From assembly GCA_041694815.1 (NCBI GenBank), contig JBGFSC010000038.1, positions 1-53,933 of the forward strand: DNA of 53,933 nucleotides, written 5' to 3'. This DNA is from Elusimicrobiota bacterium (GTDB lineage: Bacteria > Elusimicrobiota > Elusimicrobia > UBA1565 > JACRDR01). Below are positions 19,057 to 34,581 of this stretch, one piece after another. A program made the translations under genes and the position numbers. How positions within the stretch are numbered: position 1 is the first letter of the stretch; each line of letters opens with the position of its first letter. The notes under the pieces are model-generated. The model worked only from the letters and a program-made list of their open reading frames with translations, had not been told where the DNA came from and made no database searches.

Positions 19057-19155
19057 CCGCCGGCGTCCCTCCCTCTTAAAAAACTTTTTACCCCGCGGCT
19101 ATACACTCTCCCCCTCGCCTCTCCTATACTCTTTCTAAACCCCGAGGAGAGTGCC

Positions 19156-20088
19156 ATGACAACCCGAGCGCATAAGGGAAACCATAAGGAGCACGGCGGC
19201 CCCGCGGCCGCTGAATCGACGGCGGCGCTGCTGCGCGAGCTCGTCGACCACCTGCGCCAGAAGCGCACGGAGCTGCGCGAGGAATGGGCGCGGCGCATCA
19301 CGGAGTCGAAGCTGCTCACGGCGATGACCAAGGAGGAGATATTCGCCGAGGCCACCTCCGTCTACGACAATTACGTAGAGGTGCTCGAAACCGGCAGCGT
19401 GGAGGCACTGCAGGCTTACGCCCGGAGCCTCTCGGAGAGGATCATCCCCCGGGGGGTGGAGACCCACGAGGTCGTAGGCATCGTGCTGCTCCTGCGCGAC
19501 GTGCTCGCCCGCTCGCTCTTTAGCAAGTACCAGACCGATTTCGCCCTGCTCAACCGGGTGCTCGACGCCTACGAGCCGGCCGCCAACCGCATCGCCAACA
19601 CCGTGGCCGTCGGTTTCGTGCAGGAGCGCGAGCGCATCATCCGCCAACAGCAGGAGGCCATCCGCGAGCTCTCCACCCCCGTGCTGCAGGTGCGCGAGCG
19701 GCTGCTGATCCTTCCCATCATCGGCGTCGTCGACGCCCAAAGGGCCCGGCAGCTCACCGAGCAGCTCTTGCGCGGCATACGCAGCAATCGCGCCAAGGTC
19801 GTCGTGATGGACATCACGGGCGTGCCCTCGGTCGACTCGAAGGTGGCCAACCATCTCGTGCAGACCGTCGACGCCTCGCGACTGATGGGAGCGACCGTAA
19901 TCGTGACCGGCCTGTCGGCCGAGATCGCGCAGACCTTGGTGACCATCGGCGTCGACCTGACCAAGATCAATGCCGTAGGCGACCTGCAAGGAGGCCTCGA
20001 GGAGGCCGAGCGCCGGCTGGGATACAAGGTGATCCTGGAAGGGGAGGAGCCCACCAAGCCGGTGATCATGGCCAAACCGGTCCAATAG
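19156..20088 (+). CDS. rsbR: Stressosome sensor RsbR (globin-like N-terminus + STAS)
   Basis: Motifs IRELSTPVL, LPIIGVVD, MDITGV..VDS.VANHL. First gene of the RST operon. Confidence 0.9.
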   Translation: MTTRAHKGNHKEHGGPAAAESTAALLRELVDHLRQKRTELREEWARRITESKLLTAMTKEEIFAEATSVYDNYVEVLETGSVEALQAYARSLSERIIPRGVETHEVVGIVLLLRDVLARSLFSKYQTDFALLNRVLDAYEPAANRIANTVAVGFVQERERIIRQQQEAIRELSTPVLQVRERLLILPIIGVVDAQRARQLTEQLLRGIRSNRAKVVVMDITGVPSVDSKVANHLVQTVDASRLMGATVIVTGLSAEIAQTLVTIGVDLTKINAVGDLQGGLEEAERRLGYKVILEGEEPTKPVIMAKPVQ

Positions 20089-20092
20089 GGCG

Positions 20093-20467
20093 ATGCAAGT
20101 CCCTGTACTTAAGCAAAGGGAATACCTCATCGCCTCAATCCAGGCCGCGCTGACCGATACGGACCTTCTCAAGCTTCGAGATGACCTGGCCGCCCAAGCC
20201 GGGCGCTACCGCTCGCGTGGCGTGATCATCGACGTCACCCTCCTGGACGTGCTCGACTCCTTCGCGGCGCGCACCCTGCGCGGGATCGTGCACATGCTCA
20301 AATTGCGCGGCGCGGTGACCGTCGTCGTCGGCATCCCGCCGGAAGTGGCCTTCGCCATGGTGCAGCTCGGCATGACGCTCGAGGAGGTATCGACGGCCTT
20401 GGACCTCGAGGAAGGCCTCGCGTTCCTGGACGCGCATACCCGGGGGGACTATGTCAGAAGGTCCTGA
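20093..20467 (+). CDS. rsbS: Stressosome STAS protein RsbS
   Basis: Motifs IDVTLLDVLDSF (phosphorylatable Ser), GIPPEVA, TALDLEEG. Confidence 0.92.
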   Translation: MQVPVLKQREYLIASIQAALTDTDLLKLRDDLAAQAGRYRSRGVIIDVTLLDVLDSFAARTLRGIVHMLKLRGAVTVVVGIPPEVAFAMVQLGMTLEEVSTALDLEEGLAFLDAHTRGDYVRRS

Positions 20468-20855
20468 GAGGATACCGATCCGCTCGGATCTCGACGTGGT
20501 CGCGGCCCGTCAGACCGGGAGGGCCCTCGCCGCCAGACTCGGATTCTCGGACGTCGAGCAGACCATGATCGCCACGGCCATCTCGGAGCTGGCAAGGAAC
20601 ATTCTCTTGTACGCCCAGCGCGGCGAGATCACGGTGGACTTCGCCCAAAAGGACCGCAGCAAGGGCATCTGCATCGTGGCGACCGACGCCGGCCCCGGCA
20701 TCCCCGACATCGAAAAGGCCCTGCAGGAGGGATATTCGAGCAGCTATGGACTCGGGATGGGCCTTCCCGGCACGCGCCGCCTCGTCGACGACTTCGAGAT
20801 CCGCTCGGAGCCTGGCAAAGGGACGACGGTCATGGCCAGGAAATGGCTCCATTAG
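20451..20855 (+). CDS. rsbT: Ser/Thr kinase RsbT
   Basis: Motifs TAISELARNI, D.GPGI.D, GLGMGLPG..RLVD.F.I.S..G.GT. Confidence 0.92.
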   Translation: MSEGPERIPIRSDLDVVAARQTGRALAARLGFSDVEQTMIATAISELARNILLYAQRGEITVDFAQKDRSKGICIVATDAGPGIPDIEKALQEGYSSSYGLGMGLPGTRRLVDDFEIRSEPGKGTTVMARKWLH

Positions 20856-21451
20856 CGCTGACCGTCGACTGGGCGGTGGCGGCGGCCCCCATGCGGGGGG
20901 AGCTGGTCTCCGGGGATCTCCATGCCGTCAAATCCTTCTCCAACGGCATGATGCTCGCCGCCATAGACGGGCTGGGGCACGGCGCCCAGGCGGCTGAGGC
21001 GGCTCGGCGGGCGGTGGTCTGGCTGGAGGCGTACGCGCACGACCCGGTGATCCAGCTCGTGCAGCGCTGCCATGAGGGGATACGCCGGACGCGAGGCGCC
21101 GTCCTGACCGTCGCCTCGTTCAATTTTACCCTCAAGACGCTCACCTGCGTCGGGGTCGGCAACGTCGATGGCATACTCTTTAGGGCCGACCCCTCCGTCA
21201 CGCCCGTTGTCGAGGACATCCCCTCCCGCGGCGGTGTGGTCGGCTTCCAGCTTCCTCCGCTGCGCGCGCTGACCACTCCCCTCATGAAGGGAGACACTCT
21301 TATCCTCGCCACGGACGGCATCCATGGCCGTTTCCGGGACAAGGTGAAGATCGCCTTGCCCCCGCAGGCGATCGCCGACGACATCCTCGCGCGCCACCAT
21401 GTGGCCAACGACGACGCCCTCGTCCTCGTCGCGCGCTACCTAGGCCCATGA
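20843..21451 (+). CDS. rsbX: PP2C/SpoIIE-type phosphatase RsbX
   Basis: Motifs SGD, IDGLGHG, TRGAV, GVGNV, LATDGI, DDALVL. Confidence 0.88.
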   Translation: MAPLALTVDWAVAAAPMRGELVSGDLHAVKSFSNGMMLAAIDGLGHGAQAAEAARRAVVWLEAYAHDPVIQLVQRCHEGIRRTRGAVLTVASFNFTLKTLTCVGVGNVDGILFRADPSVTPVVEDIPSRGGVVGFQLPPLRALTTPLMKGDTLILATDGIHGRFRDKVKIALPPQAIADDILARHHVANDDALVLVARYLGP

Positions 21452-22461
21452 ATAGGCTCGCGAACGGGGTCGCGCACGAGTACGGGCTGGCTTTCAAAAA
21501 GTTCCTGGACAGCCCCAAGGAGGCGGCGCTCAAGGAGGCCTACGACTGCGGCCGGAAGGCTCTGGAGCAGAAAGTGAGCCTCTTGGAGCTCATCGCCTCC
21601 TACAACGAGGTACTGCAGGAGGCGCTCTTGGGCGCTAAAACCTTCCGGGACCATGCGGAGCTCTCGCGCCGCGCCAACAGCTTCCTTATGGAAAGCCTCT
21701 CGGCCTTCGAGATCGCCCATCAGGGCTACGTGGACGCGATCGCAGCGCTGCGCGCGCATGCCGAAGACCTCAAGCGCTCCAACGCCGAGCTCGAGCTGTT
21801 CGCCTCCGCCGCTTCCCACGACCTGGAGGAACCGCTGCGCAAGATTGCCGTTTTCGGGGACCTACTCAAAACCCGCTATGGGACCGCGTTGGGGCCGGAA
21901 GGCGAGCAATACCTCGAGCGCATGCAGAAAGCCGCCGTGCGCCTCTCGAAAAGGATCCAGGACCTGCTCCAGTTCTCCAGGATCGGGGCGGCCGCCGCGC
22001 GCTTCGAGACGGTCGACCTCAACGCCGTGCTGGGCAACGTGCTCTCCGACCTGGAAGGACCGCTGCGCCGCTCCGGCGGCCGCGTGCGGGTCGACACCCT
22101 CGGCCAGGTGAAGGCGGATCCCCTGCAGATGGAGAGGCTGTTCCAGAACCTCATCGGGAACGCGCTCAAGTTTCGAAAGCAGGATCAGCCGCCGCTTGTC
22201 CATATAAAGGCCGAGAGGTGCGTCGACGGGATGCTGGAGGTATCCGTGCAGGACAATGGCATCGGCTTCGATGAGGGAAACGCCGGCCGCCTCTTCCACC
22301 CCTTCCAACGCCTGCACAACCCCGCCCAATACGAGGGCACCGGCATGGGACTAGCCATCTGCAAACGGATCATTAGCCGGCACGGCGGCGAGATCCGCGT
22401 ACGCAGCAAGCCTGGGGAGGGAAGCACTTTTTACGTCACCCTTCCCTTGGCGGCGCCGTGA
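21448..22461 (+). CDS. Histidine kinase with an N-terminal RsbU_N-like domain
   Basis: N-terminus Y..AFKKFL....EAALKEAYDCGRKALE; H-box ASHDLEEPLR; NLIGNALKF; DNGIG; GTGMGLAI. Confidence 0.88.
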   Translation: MNRLANGVAHEYGLAFKKFLDSPKEAALKEAYDCGRKALEQKVSLLELIASYNEVLQEALLGAKTFRDHAELSRRANSFLMESLSAFEIAHQGYVDAIAALRAHAEDLKRSNAELELFASAASHDLEEPLRKIAVFGDLLKTRYGTALGPEGEQYLERMQKAAVRLSKRIQDLLQFSRIGAAAARFETVDLNAVLGNVLSDLEGPLRRSGGRVRVDTLGQVKADPLQMERLFQNLIGNALKFRKQDQPPLVHIKAERCVDGMLEVSVQDNGIGFDEGNAGRLFHPFQRLHNPAQYEGTGMGLAICKRIISRHGGEIRVRSKPGEGSTFYVTLPLAAP

Positions 22462-30769: not shown

Positions 30770-31360
30770 TCAAAAACCCAGCGTGGAGCGGCGCCGCCTG
30801 GAGCCGGTCAACCGGTCCCAAAGGGCGTAGACCAGCCCCCCGACAAGCAGGACCCCGCCTAGCACGGCGGCCGAACCCAGCAAGGGCGGTCTCATGACCA
30901 GCCGGGCCATCGGCGAGCGCTCGAAGCGCGACATCCGCTCGCCCAGGCGGTCCAAGTCGACGTCGGAGCGCTCGACCTGCGGGAAGAGCTTGGTCTCCTC
31001 CTCGTCGATGTGCTCGAGAACGTCCTTGATGAGGTGCTTGAATTTGGCCCGATAGCGCTCCTCGCCGATGGGAAGCCATTTCAGCTCTTGGCTGAGCCCT
31101 TTGACGACATGATGCGCCTCGAGGGCCTCGGCGACGAGCGACGGCTCCTCGACCACCCGCCTCGCCTCTGGGTAAAACAGCTTCTCCTCGAGCGCCGTGT
31201 GCTCCTCGAGCTCCCGAAGGATCTCGTTGCCGATGGAACGCAGCTCCGAGACTTCCTCGGCGTTCTCGAAACGCCGGAAAAGGTCCTTGATGCTCCGGTG
31301 CTGCTCGCGCAGCATCTCGGTCGCCCCGATGCTCCGTACTTCGCTCATTATTCTGGCCAT
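30770..31360 (-). CDS. Hemerythrin-domain protein with a C-terminal TM anchor
   Basis: Motifs LREQH, HTALEEKLFYP, EAHH, HIDEEETKLFP. GGAGG SD before ATG 31360. Confidence 0.88.
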   Translation of the reverse strand: MARIMSEVRSIGATEMLREQHRSIKDLFRRFENAEEVSELRSIGNEILRELEEHTALEEKLFYPEARRVVEEPSLVAEALEAHHVVKGLSQELKWLPIGEERYRAKFKHLIKDVLEHIDEEETKLFPQVERSDVDLDRLGERMSRFERSPMARLVMRPPLLGSAAVLGGVLLVGGLVYALWDRLTGSRRRRSTLGF

Positions 31361-31446
31361 GGTTTCCTCCCCCTTTGGCATGCCAAAGAGCCGACAGTAT
31401 AGGCGCGCCTCGAGGTGCCGGCCATAGAGGCGCTGTCAATTTGTTT

Positions 31447-32274
31447 TTACCCTCGGGTGACGCGGCCCCCTAACGCGTCGATCTTGCCGGCGGGCGGATC
31501 CTCCTTGTCGACGAGCGTCCAGCAGAAGACTTCGTCGGGAGAGAGCTTCCCCTCGGGATAAAGCCTGGCGTCGCGCTCCCCCGCCTCGATGTCGTCGAGA
31601 TACTCCCCGAAGGAGAGAAGCGTCCCGCGGCAGAGGCGCCTTGCTCTCTGCGAGGCGGGCTCCAGCGACTTGGAAAACAGGCGGGAAAGCACCCAGGGGG
31701 GGACGTTGCCGCCGCGCCGGGGGAAGATGAATCGGAACAGGATCAGGTGGCTGAGCAGCACGGCGCCGCGCTCGCCGAAGCGGCCCAGCAGGCGCCCCCA
31801 ATCGAGGCGGTCGGCGCGCGCCTTGAGCAGGTGCGCGATGTCGGCGCCGTCGTAGCGGCCGCGCTCCATGATGAAGGCCTTGGTCCAGATCATCTCCTCC
31901 ACCGGCACGAAGCGCGCCCGCACCCCGAACAACCGCCCCGGCTCGCTGAACTCGAACCACGCGTCGTCGACCTCGCAAAGCCCATTGCCCGAGCTGAAGA
32001 TAAGGTCGACGAAGCGGCTCCCGCGCCATATCTTGGCCAGCCAATGCCTCGCCTTCCAGGCGGTCTTGTAGCCCTTCTCGGAGAACAGCCGGAGCACGGG
32101 CTCGCAATCGCGGCGGCGCAGGAAAACGTCGAGGTCCTTGGTATCCCGCGAGATGCCGGTGTACAAGCATAACGCGGAGGAGCCTCCGATCAAAAAGGGG
32201 ATCCGCGAGCGCTTGAGCAGGTCGAGGGCGTCGCGGTAGAAGCGCGGGGGAGCCGCGGGGCCGTTAACGGGCAT
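31447..32274 (-). CDS. Pol-beta-superfamily nucleotidyltransferase
   Basis: Motifs FLIGGS.A...Y....RDTKDLD, VDLIF, DGADI. Confidence 0.85.
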   Translation of the reverse strand: MPVNGPAAPPRFYRDALDLLKRSRIPFLIGGSSALCLYTGISRDTKDLDVFLRRRDCEPVLRLFSEKGYKTAWKARHWLAKIWRGSRFVDLIFSSGNGLCEVDDAWFEFSEPGRLFGVRARFVPVEEMIWTKAFIMERGRYDGADIAHLLKARADRLDWGRLLGRFGERGAVLLSHLILFRFIFPRRGGNVPPWVLSRLFSKSLEPASQRARRLCRGTLLSFGEYLDDIEAGERDARLYPEGKLSPDEVFCWTLVDKEDPPAGKIDALGGRVTRG

Positions 32275-33010
32275 CCGCGGAGAGCTCGAGTAGCCCGAAG
32301 AGAGGACCCTGGGGCTTGAGCCGCTTTAATAAAGGAAGGGCGACGTTGAAAACCGGCACGCCGGAGGCGGTGCGGCCCTCGGCGCGCCCGTAATGCGCGT
32401 GGCCGTGGAACACCGCCGTGACCGGATGGCGGTTGAGGGGCTCCTCGAGCCGGCCGGAGCCGAGGAACGGATAGAGTTCCAGCGGCTCCCCCTCGACCGT
32501 CGCCGGGATCGGGGCGTAATGCAGGATCACGATGCGGTGCGCCGTCCTCAAGCGCGCCAGGGCCGCGTCGAGCTTGAGCGCCTCCTCCGAGGCCTCGTGA
32601 ACCAGGCGCTTGAGGCTCGGCTCGCCCCAAGACTGCAGCACCCGCTTGCCGAAGCCCCCGATGTAACCCTTCACCCCGGCCACGCCGACTCCCAATAGCT
32701 CGCAGGAGTCGCCGTCGAGAAGGCGAAGCCCCGCCTGGCCGAGTATCGCCTTGAGCTCCCGCTCCTTGCCGGACTCGAAGTCGTGGTTTCCAAGCACCGC
32801 GGCCATGGGCATGCGGGAGACCGGCTTGAGCTCTTGGGCGAGCAGATGCGCCTCCTCCGGCAGGCCGTAGTCGGTCAGGTCCCCACAGAGCAGCAGCAGA
32901 TCGGCGCTTTCCGCGACCGCGGCGAAAAGCGCGGCCAGGCTTCCCCGCGAGGCCCGCGAGCAATGGAGGTCCCCGACAGCCGCGACCCGGATCCTCGATT
33001 TCTTCTCCAC
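32264..33010 (-). CDS. Calcineurin-like metallophosphoesterase
   Basis: Motifs GDLH, GDLT, GNHD, LHYAP, HGHAH. Start taken at GTG 33010, 7 nt after TAGAAT; ATG 33019 is the alternative. Confidence 0.9.
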   Translation of the reverse strand: MEKKSRIRVAAVGDLHCSRASRGSLAALFAAVAESADLLLLCGDLTDYGLPEEAHLLAQELKPVSRMPMAAVLGNHDFESGKERELKAILGQAGLRLLDGDSCELLGVGVAGVKGYIGGFGKRVLQSWGEPSLKRLVHEASEEALKLDAALARLRTAHRIVILHYAPIPATVEGEPLELYPFLGSGRLEEPLNRHPVTAVFHGHAHYGRAEGRTASGVPVFNVALPLLKRLKPQGPLFGLLELSADAR

Positions 33011-33192
33011 CCTAGGCATTCTACGCCCGGCGCCGAACGCTACGCCAGTCAAGTTTTTTTGAAATCGCAGTAACGGCGGCGCGCCGGGCGCGGCACAAAA
33101 ATGCCACACGGAATTTCCCCGGCCGCAATGGACCCGACGCCCCGTCTCGAATACAATCCAGCGCTCTTAAGTAAACGGAACAGGAGGAACTG

Positions 33193-34581
33193 ATGAAAAC
33201 CGATTCCGATGGACTGAAGATCCCGACCGACGGGAAGAACGGGAGCGACTCGGCCTACGAGGCCGAGATGAGCGGCGGCCCCCACCGCGAGGAGGTGGTC
33301 CGCAGCGTGCTCAAGCGCATCCATGACCGCGGCATCCGGGTCGTCGATTTCTGGTTCACGGAGATGTCGGGCCGCCCTTGGCGCATTTCGATGTCCGCGG
33401 CGAGCCTCGACGAGCGCCTCTTCTCCTCGGGCGTGGCCGTCGACGGCAGGTCCATCGGCGGCTCCTGGGAAGGGCTCATCTTGATCCTTCCCGACGCCTC
33501 GGCCGCCTACATCGACCCCGTCGCCTCCGTCCCCACCCTCTCGGTGCTCTGCGACGTCGCCGACGCCGGCTCCCGGAAAACCTATTCCCTGGATCCGCGG
33601 CAGGCGCTCAAGCGGGCCGAGGAGCATCTCCGAGGCGTTTCGGCCGCCGAGCGCTGGAGCGTCGGGGCCGAGCCAGAGTTCTTCCTCCTCGAGAACCACG
33701 GCCACGCGGCCTCCGAGGAGTCCGTCTGGGAGCTGCTGCGCGCGATGGCCGTCGCCCTGGGGGAGGCGGGGATACCCGTCGATTGGTTCCGCACCGGGCC
33801 CCGCGTCGGGCAGGGGCGCGTGCAGATGCGCGCCGCGCCCGCCCTGCGCACCGCCGACCACGTGATCCTCTACAAGAACATAGCGCGCAACCTCGCCAAG
33901 CGGGGAGGCAGGACCGCCTCCTTCCTGCCCAAGCCTCTCGCCGGAGAGGGCGCCGCCAATTTCCTCGTCCACCATACCTTCTGGCGCGGCGGCCAAAACC
34001 TCTTCCACGATCCCGACGGCTGGGCGATGACGAGCGAGCTGTGCCGGCAATTCGCGGCGGGGCTGCTCAAGCACGCGCCCGCCCTTGCGGCCTTCTGCGC
34101 GCCCACCATGAACTCCTACCGCCGCCTATTGCCGGGATCGGGTGCGCCGACCGATCTCGTGCTCTCGCGAAACCGGAGCTCGGCGGCCTGCCGCATCCCG
34201 GCCCGCTCGGCGGCGCCCGAGACCCGGCGCGTCAAGTTCGCCTGCTCGGATTCCTCCGCCAACCCCTACCTGGCCTTCGCGGCGATGCTCATGGCCGGCT
34301 TGGACGGGGTGGAGAATCGCCTCGAGCCCGCGATCGACGAGCTGCCGCCGGATGGGCCGCGCCTGCCGCACTCGCTCGAGGAGGCCTTGACTGCGCTGGA
34401 GGACGACCAGGACTTCCTGCGCCGAGGCGGCGTGTTCACCGAGGAGTTGATCCAAGCCTGGATCCGCGAGCGCTGGAAGCTCCAGGTCTTGCCGGTGCGA
34501 TCGGAGCCGCACCCCTCGGAATTACGCCTGGACGGGACCTGGTGGCAGACGACGAGCCTACGCGAAGAGCTGTTTTCCTAG
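33193..34581 (+). CDS. Glutamine synthetase type I homologue with a degenerate active site
   Basis: GS-fold motifs DGRSI, DPR, EPEFFL, FLPKP, NSYRRL.PG..AP, RIP, NPYLAFAA.L.AGLDG. Several catalytic residues are absent. AGGAGG SD. Confidence 0.85.
   Translation: MKTDSDGLKIPTDGKNGSDSAYEAEMSGGPHREEVVRSVLKRIHDRGIRVVDFWFTEMSGRPWRISMSAASLDERLFSSGVAVDGRSIGGSWEGLILILPDASAAYIDPVASVPTLSVLCDVADAGSRKTYSLDPRQALKRAEEHLRGVSAAERWSVGAEPEFFLLENHGHAASEESVWELLRAMAVALGEAGIPVDWFRTGPRVGQGRVQMRAAPALRTADHVILYKNIARNLAKRGGRTASFLPKPLAGEGAANFLVHHTFWRGGQNLFHDPDGWAMTSELCRQFAAGLLKHAPALAAFCAPTMNSYRRLLPGSGAPTDLVLSRNRSSAACRIPARSAAPETRRVKFACSDSSANPYLAFAAMLMAGLDGVENRLEPAIDELPPDGPRLPHSLEEALTALEDDQDFLRRGGVFTEELIQAWIRERWKLQVLPVRSEPHPSELRLDGTWWQTTSLREELFS

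Follow-up and report, generated by a model that had tools for sequence, protein, structure and literature searches.

A family of glutamine synthetase-fold proteins in an Elusimicrobiota order carries basic residues at former metal-ligand positions and is linked to a putative stress and amino-sugar regulon

An intact gene encodes a protein with the type I-beta glutamine synthetase fold

The window, by which we mean the whole 53,933-nucleotide stretch of Elusimicrobiota DNA that was analysed, contains on its forward strand an intact open reading frame (positions 33193-34581) that codes for a protein of 462 amino acids, P0001. The Shine-Dalgarno sequence AGGAGG (33182-33187, forward strand) ends 5 nucleotides before the ATG, which bears out the intact frame and strong ribosome-binding site described in the first-pass annotation. 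The gene stands alone in the window; a methyltransferase gene converges on it downstream, and divergent genes for a metallophosphoesterase, a nucleotidyltransferase-like protein and a hemerythrin lie upstream.

P0001 matches both Pfam domains of glutamine synthetase (GS), Gln-synt_N and Gln-synt_C. Its AlphaFold2 model (mean pLDDT 91.9, pTM 0.90; residues 1-18 have a pLDDT below 50 and are probably disordered) matches type I-beta GS (GSI-beta) with TM values of 0.81-0.84 at 34-36% identity, and type I-beta enzymes are also the best matches in a PDB sequence search. By Pfam, the model and the structure search, P0001 has the GS beta-grasp and catalytic-domain fold, i.e. the same two-domain fold as the GSI-beta GlnA enzymes of E. 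coli/Salmonella, M. tuberculosis (GlnA1, 2bvc) and Synechocystis (3ng0), and the type I scaffold claimed earlier is therefore confirmed. The protein nevertheless falls below every NCBIfam cut-off for GS: it scores 308 bits against the GSI-beta equivalog TIGR00653 (cut-off 429 bits) and 171 bits against NF045547, used as a test for GoaS/PuuA-type enzymes (cut-off 650 bits). As a control for TIGR00653, six members of the family described below fell under the cut-off and two canonical GlnA proteins above it.

The oligomeric surface may also be retained. A two-copy model of P0001 scored 0.46 as compared to 0.00 for the best control, with a contact agreement of at least 93% and a pLDDT of at least 89; 20 of 30 solved pairs and one of 23 single chains score as high as the mark set for a homodimer. 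The model places a predicted two-fold self-interface in the C-terminal segment (residues 430-448; 34480-34536, forward strand) and supports self-association through these residues, a pass that may itself stem from likeness to solved GS structures.

The active site has lost four of six metal ligands

Residue changes were read from an alignment to E. coli GlnA, whose numbering is used throughout. We take the six metal ligands of GS to be E129, E131, E212, E220, H269 and E357; the roles that we assign to the E. coli residue numbers agree with the ligands of an archaeal GS once mapped by motif. The ATP, Mg and glutamate ligands of the archaeal enzyme are listed in the available part of its description (PMC10799026).

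Two of the six metal ligands are kept in P0001, E129 (E160 of P0001) and E131 (E162), which are encoded at 33670-33678 of the forward strand and are invariant in all 92 sequences of the family; D50 (D84) is also kept. The other four are replaced, as E212 is G202, E220 is R209, H269 is L258 and E357 is K348. Within the glutamate/ammonia site (R359, E327, Y179, N264, R321 and D50), only R321 and D50 remain: R359 is A350, the flap residue E327 is G317, N264 is glycine, and Y179 is lost together with most of segment 139-186, from which 40 of 48 residues are gone and 8 are left. The 21-residue segment 384-404 is shortened to 14 residues with deletion of Y397, so that P0001 has neither the beta-type insertion nor an adenylylatable tyrosine. 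At the adenine site F225 is alanine and S273 threonine, and further changes are R339 to serine (when read in strict register), D64 to leucine and H210 to arginine. The first-pass annotation had reported that D50, E129 and E131 are kept, that E212, E220, H269, E327, E357 and R359 are lost, and that the adenylylation loop is missing; each of these substitutions is found on the alignment, though its list had omitted the loss of the Y179 loop and the F225A, S273T, N264G, R339S, D64L and H210R changes.

New residues are clustered around the former metal sites. R200, G202, R209 and Q211 (33790-33825, forward strand) occupy the positions of H210, E212, E220 and A222 and are invariant in the family. 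L258, at the lost H269, is followed by H260, which is the retained H271 (33964-33972, forward strand), and a third stretch (34192-34242, forward strand) holds R334 (R344), R345, R346 (R355) and K348 (E357K), all invariant, as well as A350 at the lost R359.

The replacements are fixed in a family of 92 sequences

A protein search listed 120 matches, all of which were aligned: P0001, 91 relatives with the same signature and 28 canonical GlnA proteins. Pairwise identity within the family is 35-89%, yet 31 alignment columns are invariant. The replacements E212G, E220R, H210R, A222Q and E357K are found in 92 of 92 sequences, as are the retained residues E129, E131, H271, R344 and R355; R321 persists in 90 members and D50 in 88. 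The H269 position holds proline (80 of 92), leucine or phenylalanine in every member, and at R359 cysteine predominates (76 of 92), with arginine in 9. Y179 and Y397 are absent from all members, glutamate is not among the five commonest residues at position 327, and the residues that recognize adenine are relaxed (alanine at F225 in 74 of 92 and at S273 in 78). R339, missing from P0001, is arginine in 57 of 92 members. The N-terminal domain carries its own family-specific fixed changes (W54, P62, W63, R64 and W92). Four divergent members of 490-514 amino acids (P0088, P0089, P0108 and P0125) carry an extra N-terminal region of ~100 residues that has no Pfam match.

In comparison to GSI-beta GlnA the family thus keeps E129, E131, H271, R321, R344, R355 and D50, but differs in E212G, E220R, H269P/L/F, E357K and R359C/A, in the absence of the E327 flap, in deletion of the Y179 loop, beta-type insertion and Y397 loop, in the changes at F225 and S273, and in a reversed pocket charge. 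Summed over 16 pocket positions, the net charge is -3 in all 28 canonical GlnA proteins as compared to +2 to +5 in all 92 family members (+4 in 64 of them, +3 in P0001). The shift is about what two or three Mg2+ ions would add, as if arginine and lysine had replaced Mg2+. Ten positions on the metal and phosphate side are 95-100% conserved, whereas 21% of the 411 alignment columns reach at least 95%.

Judged from these residues, P0001 very probably cannot make glutamine. Such an activity is very unlikely because the protein has lost four of its six metal ligands along with R359, the flap and the ammonia loop, and because even GS-like ligases with shifted amine specificity keep their metal and glutamate ligands. 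The gamma-glutamyl-amine ligases GoaS, PuuA, GlnA2-4 and NpaA1 do not use ammonia and lack either the flap or D50 (PMC9397018 and the accessible part of PMC11335346), while the same part of the latter paper describes substrate-shifted enzymes as keeping the ATP, glutamate and Mn ligands. That P0001 is a conventional gamma-glutamyl ligase, whether GS or a GoaS/PuuA-type enzyme with altered amine specificity, would fit the name ‘glutamine synthetase’ that databases give to members and the retention of E129, E131, R321 and D50. It is nonetheless highly improbable, as GoaS enzymes retain metal and glutamate ligands (PMC11335346, in the part available) while four of six metal ligands are lost here in 92 of 92 sequences, the metal, ATP and glutamate ligands are not conserved as they are in those ligases, and the family scores under all NCBIfam cut-offs.

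Selection on the coding sequence argues for a retained role. The simple NG86 method, applied to 13 genomic copies, gave dN/dS values of 0.16-0.30 for the eight closest pairs and of 0.34-0.46 for the four listed pairs that include the P0001 gene; values for the linked WbqC gene (see below) are similar to those of the family. The first-pass annotation had proposed that GS activity was lost with function retained, and the replacements fixed in 92 of 92 orthologues together with dN/dS well below 1 support this reading. A decaying, functionless pseudogene-in-waiting would be consistent with the scattered occurrence of the family, in 15 of the 101 genomes, and with frame breaks in the copies of genomes G419 and G422, although in G419 the neighbouring genes are also fragmented, which suggests sequencing error. 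The 31 invariant columns, the low dN/dS and a strong promoter motif (see below) leave decay barely credible, and the conservation has largely refuted it.

The family probably derives from GSI-beta and was found in one order of Elusimicrobiota

The nearest relatives of the family are bacterial GSI-beta proteins, as judged from the protein search and from a tree built without a lengsin sequence. In that tree (IQ-TREE in quick mode, 77 rows) the family is monophyletic on a long stem (1.44) and groups with a canonical subgroup of GSI-beta (P0092-type) at an SH-aLRT of 93; because of the quick mode and a composition bias flagged in the family rows, the sister group is tentative. A FastTree phylogeny (402 rows, midpoint root) placed the family outside GSI-beta, and this was treated as a long-branch effect.

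All family members that bear organism names are from Elusimicrobiota. Of 401 genomes of the phylum that were searched, nine had a match above 440 bits, all of them from one order, with the next best at 244 bits; to our knowledge, this order is represented only by assembled genomes. Within the order, the family is present in 15 of 101 genomes, namely 14 located by an order-wide search that was checked by gene calls and tblastn, and G422, which holds a split copy. The order-wide search had missed the latter, so it may have overlooked broken copies in further draft genomes as well. Scans of contig collections were saturated by canonical GS, which dominated both the genome scan (family members at 2 of 80 loci listed) and the metagenome scan (0 of 80), and neighbourhoods were therefore drawn from the searched genomes instead. 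A search of the ESM Atlas returned clusters of ordinary GS and WbqC proteins only.

GSIII is present in 92 of the 101 genomes, including all 15 that carry the family. The source genome (G000, 97.8% complete) has three GS-family loci: P0001, a GSIII, and a PuuA-type ligase, which is a separate gene with intact-looking motifs on contig C18. The first-pass annotation had asked for a canonical glnA elsewhere in the genome, and no canonical GSI-beta was found in this assembly. Another full-length GSI-type match occurs in one of the 15 family-bearing genomes (G441). G007, G023 and G441 (loci L012, L013 and L227) encode another long-branch GSI-type protein that is 39-40% identical to P0093 and distinct from the family.

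These counts bear on the earlier suggestion that P0001 modulates the true GS as a hetero-oligomer, for which we find no support. The idea that P0001 joins the active GS of the cell as an inactive subunit, or regulates it, would be in keeping with descent from GSI-beta, with the predicted assembly surface, and with the presence in the regulon neighbourhood of GlmS, which consumes glutamine. Without a canonical GSI in the source genome, however, assembly with one is unlikely, most of the 15 family-bearing genomes likewise offer no GSI for such an assembly, and the working GS is probably GSIII, whose subunit differs in size according to the available portion of PMC10799026. Moreover, no site of the promoter motif described below is listed upstream of the GSIII gene in the source genome, and the fixed changes in the N-terminal domain are specific to the family. 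We consider such a subunit very improbable.

The family is linked to WbqC and amino-sugar genes

A WbqC gene lies within 3 kb of the family gene in 11 of the 15 genomes, usually together with PIG-L deacetylase genes. Many of these clusters also hold genes for ACT proteins, a GlmU-like protein, GlmS, a nucleotide-sugar dehydrogenase, UDP-GlcNAc 2-epimerase, GT2 glycosyltransferases and TPR proteins. As for the other genomes, the contig of G369 is too short to show the linkage, and in G000, G004 and G426 the WbqC operon is unlinked to the family gene. The module is split in the source genome, with WbqC, a methyltransferase-like gene and three PIG-L genes on contig C22, GT2, a TPR-deacetylase, a second GlmS and the dehydrogenase on C12, and the ACT pair on C49. 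By inspection of loci by eye, the WbqC/PIG-L context was not seen around the canonical GlnA genes closest to the family. In G056 the cluster has an ICL-like gene nearby; this was judged unrelated, as its homologue in the source genome adjoins a malate-synthase-like gene.

The two families also co-occur. When the WbqC subfamily is defined by at least 49% identity (the next best first match is at 45%), it is present in 21 of the 101 genomes, and all 15 family-bearing genomes are among these. In the remaining six of the 21 no match to the GS-like family was found; five are fragmented drafts, and G387 has a contiguous WbqC operon that lacks the gene, so the module can do without it. Because the genomes share ancestry, these co-occurrences should not be counted as separate events. 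Two further features of the gene neighbourhoods were observed. In several operons PIG-L is separated from the GS-like gene by a small charged open reading frame of ~64 amino acids without a Pfam match (L236:4049-4240, L140:8957-9148, L246:7340-7525), which persists in G387, where the GS-like gene is missing. In G004 and G426 (L137:8533-9354, L238:1-228) a gene with a GlmU-N-like nucleotidyltransferase domain and an atypical signature loop directly follows the GS-like gene.

No functional study of WbqC was found in the literature search, and a PDB sequence search with the 245-residue protein of the source genome (L273:3591-4325, C22) gave no match. Its predicted structure (pLDDT 89) most closely resembles BshC (Z 14.2, rmsd 3.1 over 221 aligned residues; the next match has Z 11.3), class I aminoacyl-tRNA synthetases rank after BshC, and Foldseek also places BshC first, though with an E-value of 0.03. 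BshC is a putative cysteine ligase whose reaction is described as unreconstituted and as possibly needing another protein or an activated donor, as far as the available part of PMC5790435 goes. The gene cluster is reminiscent of the bacillithiol BshB/BshC module, since it combines a PIG-L deacetylase with a BshC-fold protein. Unlike BshC (540 residues), WbqC is short and 13% identical, a shared fold does not by itself show a shared function, and the same portion of that paper describes no GS-like component.

This context raises the possibility that the family has become a metal-independent enzyme in which arginine and lysine replace Mg2+ and E129, E131 and D50 act as acid or base. P0001 would then activate or transfer a group (e.g. 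an acyl or aminoacyl moiety) for the BshC-fold WbqC, which would acylate an amino sugar freed by PIG-L. Basic residues have been gained invariantly next to kept carboxylates, the WbqC model matches BshC best, BshC may call for an additional protein or donor (PMC5790435, in the part available), and the GS-like gene is tightly linked to WbqC and PIG-L. Against this, no GS-fold enzyme that works without its metal ligands was found in the literature searched, the adenine residues and R359 are lost, and most WbqC genes in the order lack a GS-like partner, as some WbqC occurs in 46 of 101 genomes and the family in 15, with an operon in G387 that does without it. New chemistry of this kind, the main rival of the explanation favoured below, is conceivable but somewhat unlikely, and the fuller proposal, a GS bifunnel rebuilt as a metal-free enzyme that supplies or carries an activated donor for WbqC in stress-induced amino-sugar acylation, is unlikely. 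If true, this would give the GS fold a new kind of chemistry and offer a way into the unsolved reaction of the BshC type.

A shared promoter motif connects the family to a putative regulon

Upstream regions in these genomes contain the motif TT(A/C)C-N9-ATG(G/T)-N20/21-TANNNT. The search expression was written after inspection by eye that included the region upstream of the P0001 gene, and the weight matrix was trained only on 19 sites upstream of WbqC in 11 other genomes. With this matrix the source genome has 19 sites of at least 20 bits as compared to 1, 1 and 0 in three locally shuffled genomes, and 22 of its top 24 sites fall between -54 and +72 nucleotides from a called start. The site of the P0001 gene (33115-33157, forward strand; 24.0 bits, rank 10 in the genome) consists of a TTCC-N9-ATGG box whose ATGG overlaps a weak -35 element (33129-33134), followed after a 17-nucleotide spacing by the -10 element TACAAT (33152-33157), an overlap that would be expected of an activator-dependent promoter. 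The WbqC-PIG-L operon on C22, which is unlinked to the P0001 gene, has a site of 19.7 bits.

Two further copies were matched by the pattern and matrix in the window, bringing to three a count made with a pattern tailored to these sites, so that the chance estimate attached to this count is not independent of them. One is on the reverse strand (31396-31438) upstream of the hemerythrin-domain gene (30770-31381), and the other on the forward strand (19088-19130) upstream of an operon (19156-22461, forward strand) with two STAS-domain genes, a HATPase, a SpoIIE phosphatase and an RsbU_N-histidine kinase. This operon is stressosome-like, and we presume it to be of the RsbR/S/T type. No site is listed for the metallophosphoesterase and nucleotidyltransferase-like genes (31447-33019, reverse strand) that diverge from the P0001 gene.

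Across the source genome ~20 genes of the stress and amino-sugar type carry the motif, in many cases where two promoters point away from each other. The genes behind the top sites include the nucleotide-sugar dehydrogenase, a nucleotidyltransferase that precedes GlmS, GT2, the ACT pair, a ferritin-like protein, hemerythrins, DUF1328, an alpha-amylase/DUF3459 protein, CBS, BrkB and AI-2E proteins, the STAS/HATPase/SpoIIE operon and an OmpR-type regulator. We regard this set as a putative general stress regulon. The OmpR-type regulator, which has a motif site upstream in the source genome and homologues in the cluster, is a candidate activator; similar regulators occur in 86 of 101 genomes.

A strict form of the pattern occurs in at least four copies in 14 of the 15 family-bearing genomes as compared to five of the other 86, and a reversed control gave three matches in all 101 genomes; the motif is thereby enriched in ~19 genomes of the order. 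This form was refined after hits had been seen and does not match the TTCC variant of the P0001 gene, and in each of the 11 genomes used for training, one or two of the sites counted are the training sites themselves. Directly before the GS-like gene the motif is strong in G000 and G441 (23.5 bits), weak in G004 (8.3 bits), G008 (7.0 bits) and G426 (5.1 bits), and absent in G389.

The company of ferritin-like, hemerythrin, DUF1328 and CBS genes would suit a structural protein that acts independently of a ligand, e.g. a stress scaffold, chaperone or storage oligomer, in which arginine and lysine do no more than neutralise E129 and E131 and so stabilise the fold in the absence of metal. The retained fold and predicted self-interface are compatible with such a role, and so is lengsin, described in the available part of PMC2667176 as a non-catalytic dodecamer. 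Repair of salt bridges would cover R220 and K357, however, but not the invariant H271, R344, R355, R210 and Q222, and it leaves unexplained a pocket charge near +4 and linkage to sugar-modifying genes. We therefore regard a ligand-independent role as decidedly doubtful. From the scaffold idea of the first-pass annotation, the retained role other than GS stands, but a ‘dead scaffold’ undersells a conserved pocket with invariant basic residues.

A proposed metal-independent pocket for a phosphorylated ligand

The explanation that we favour, to which we give a probability of roughly one half, is that P0001 is a non-catalytic oligomer, sensor or accessory subunit that binds a phosphorylated ligand. 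In a lineage that relies on GSIII, a GSI-beta glnA copy would no longer have been needed to assimilate nitrogen and would have been recruited to the stress and amino-sugar regulon with its fold, and probably its oligomer, kept. H210R, E220R and E357K would sit at the former places of the metal ligands, and the new arginine and lysine residues together with the retained H271, R344 and R355 would form a positively charged, metal-independent pocket. This pocket would bind a phosphorylated anion, e.g. a nucleotide or nucleotide-sugar, and P0001 could thereby serve WbqC, the PIG-L deacetylases, GlmS and the nucleotidyltransferases as a sensor or accessory subunit. Computation shows the altered residues and how well they are conserved, the fold, the co-occurrence and the common promoter motif, and from there the lost activity, the binding of a ligand, what that ligand is, the partner and the ‘general stress’ label are inferred.

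That the pocket columns are among the most conserved and include new invariant basic residues suggests that a ligand is bound or, possibly, that the chemistry is new. The His/Arg set that binds the triphosphate in GS, described in the accessible part of PMC10799026, is largely kept in the family when mapped to E. coli numbers by motif. With F225 and S273 changed and the glutamate half of the site opened, the ligand may be other than ATP; speculatively, a nucleotide-sugar would fit the operon. The retention of E129, E131, D50 (88 of 92) and R321 (90 of 92) weighs against a non-catalytic protein, as these residues could serve catalysis.

The family resembles lengsin, the pseudo-GS of the vertebrate lens, in combining a GSI fold with a degenerate active site. 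The available part of PMC2667176 describes lengsin as GSI-derived, non-catalytic, oligomeric and retained for another job. In contrast, the family appears to have arisen independently from bacterial GSI-beta (lengsin being compared here by description rather than by alignment), and it has fixed basic replacements in the pocket as well as a regulon and sugar-operon context. No description of the family was found in the literature searched, as judged from titles and the openings of abstracts, with subscription papers mostly outside the search. Non-catalytic GS folds are thus known in animals, while the bacterial GS-like paralogues in the literature searched keep their metals; the present family is a bacterial one in which fixed cations have taken the place of metal ligands, and its gene order, co-occurrence and shared promoter motif link it to a stress and amino-sugar module. 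This makes testable the question of what a metal-free GS pocket binds or does. The motif defines a regulon of ~20 sites in this order, and the linked WbqC family can now be connected to BshC on structural grounds. The database name of the members would also mislead reconstructions of nitrogen metabolism.

Degenerate active sites were also observed outside the family. Dozens of other GSI-beta-like representatives (P0131-P0268; 146 examined) carry unrelated substitutions, and these may comprise further pseudo-GS lineages or reflect decay or sequencing error; given other independent degenerate lineages in the databases, pseudo-GS as such is not unique to the family.
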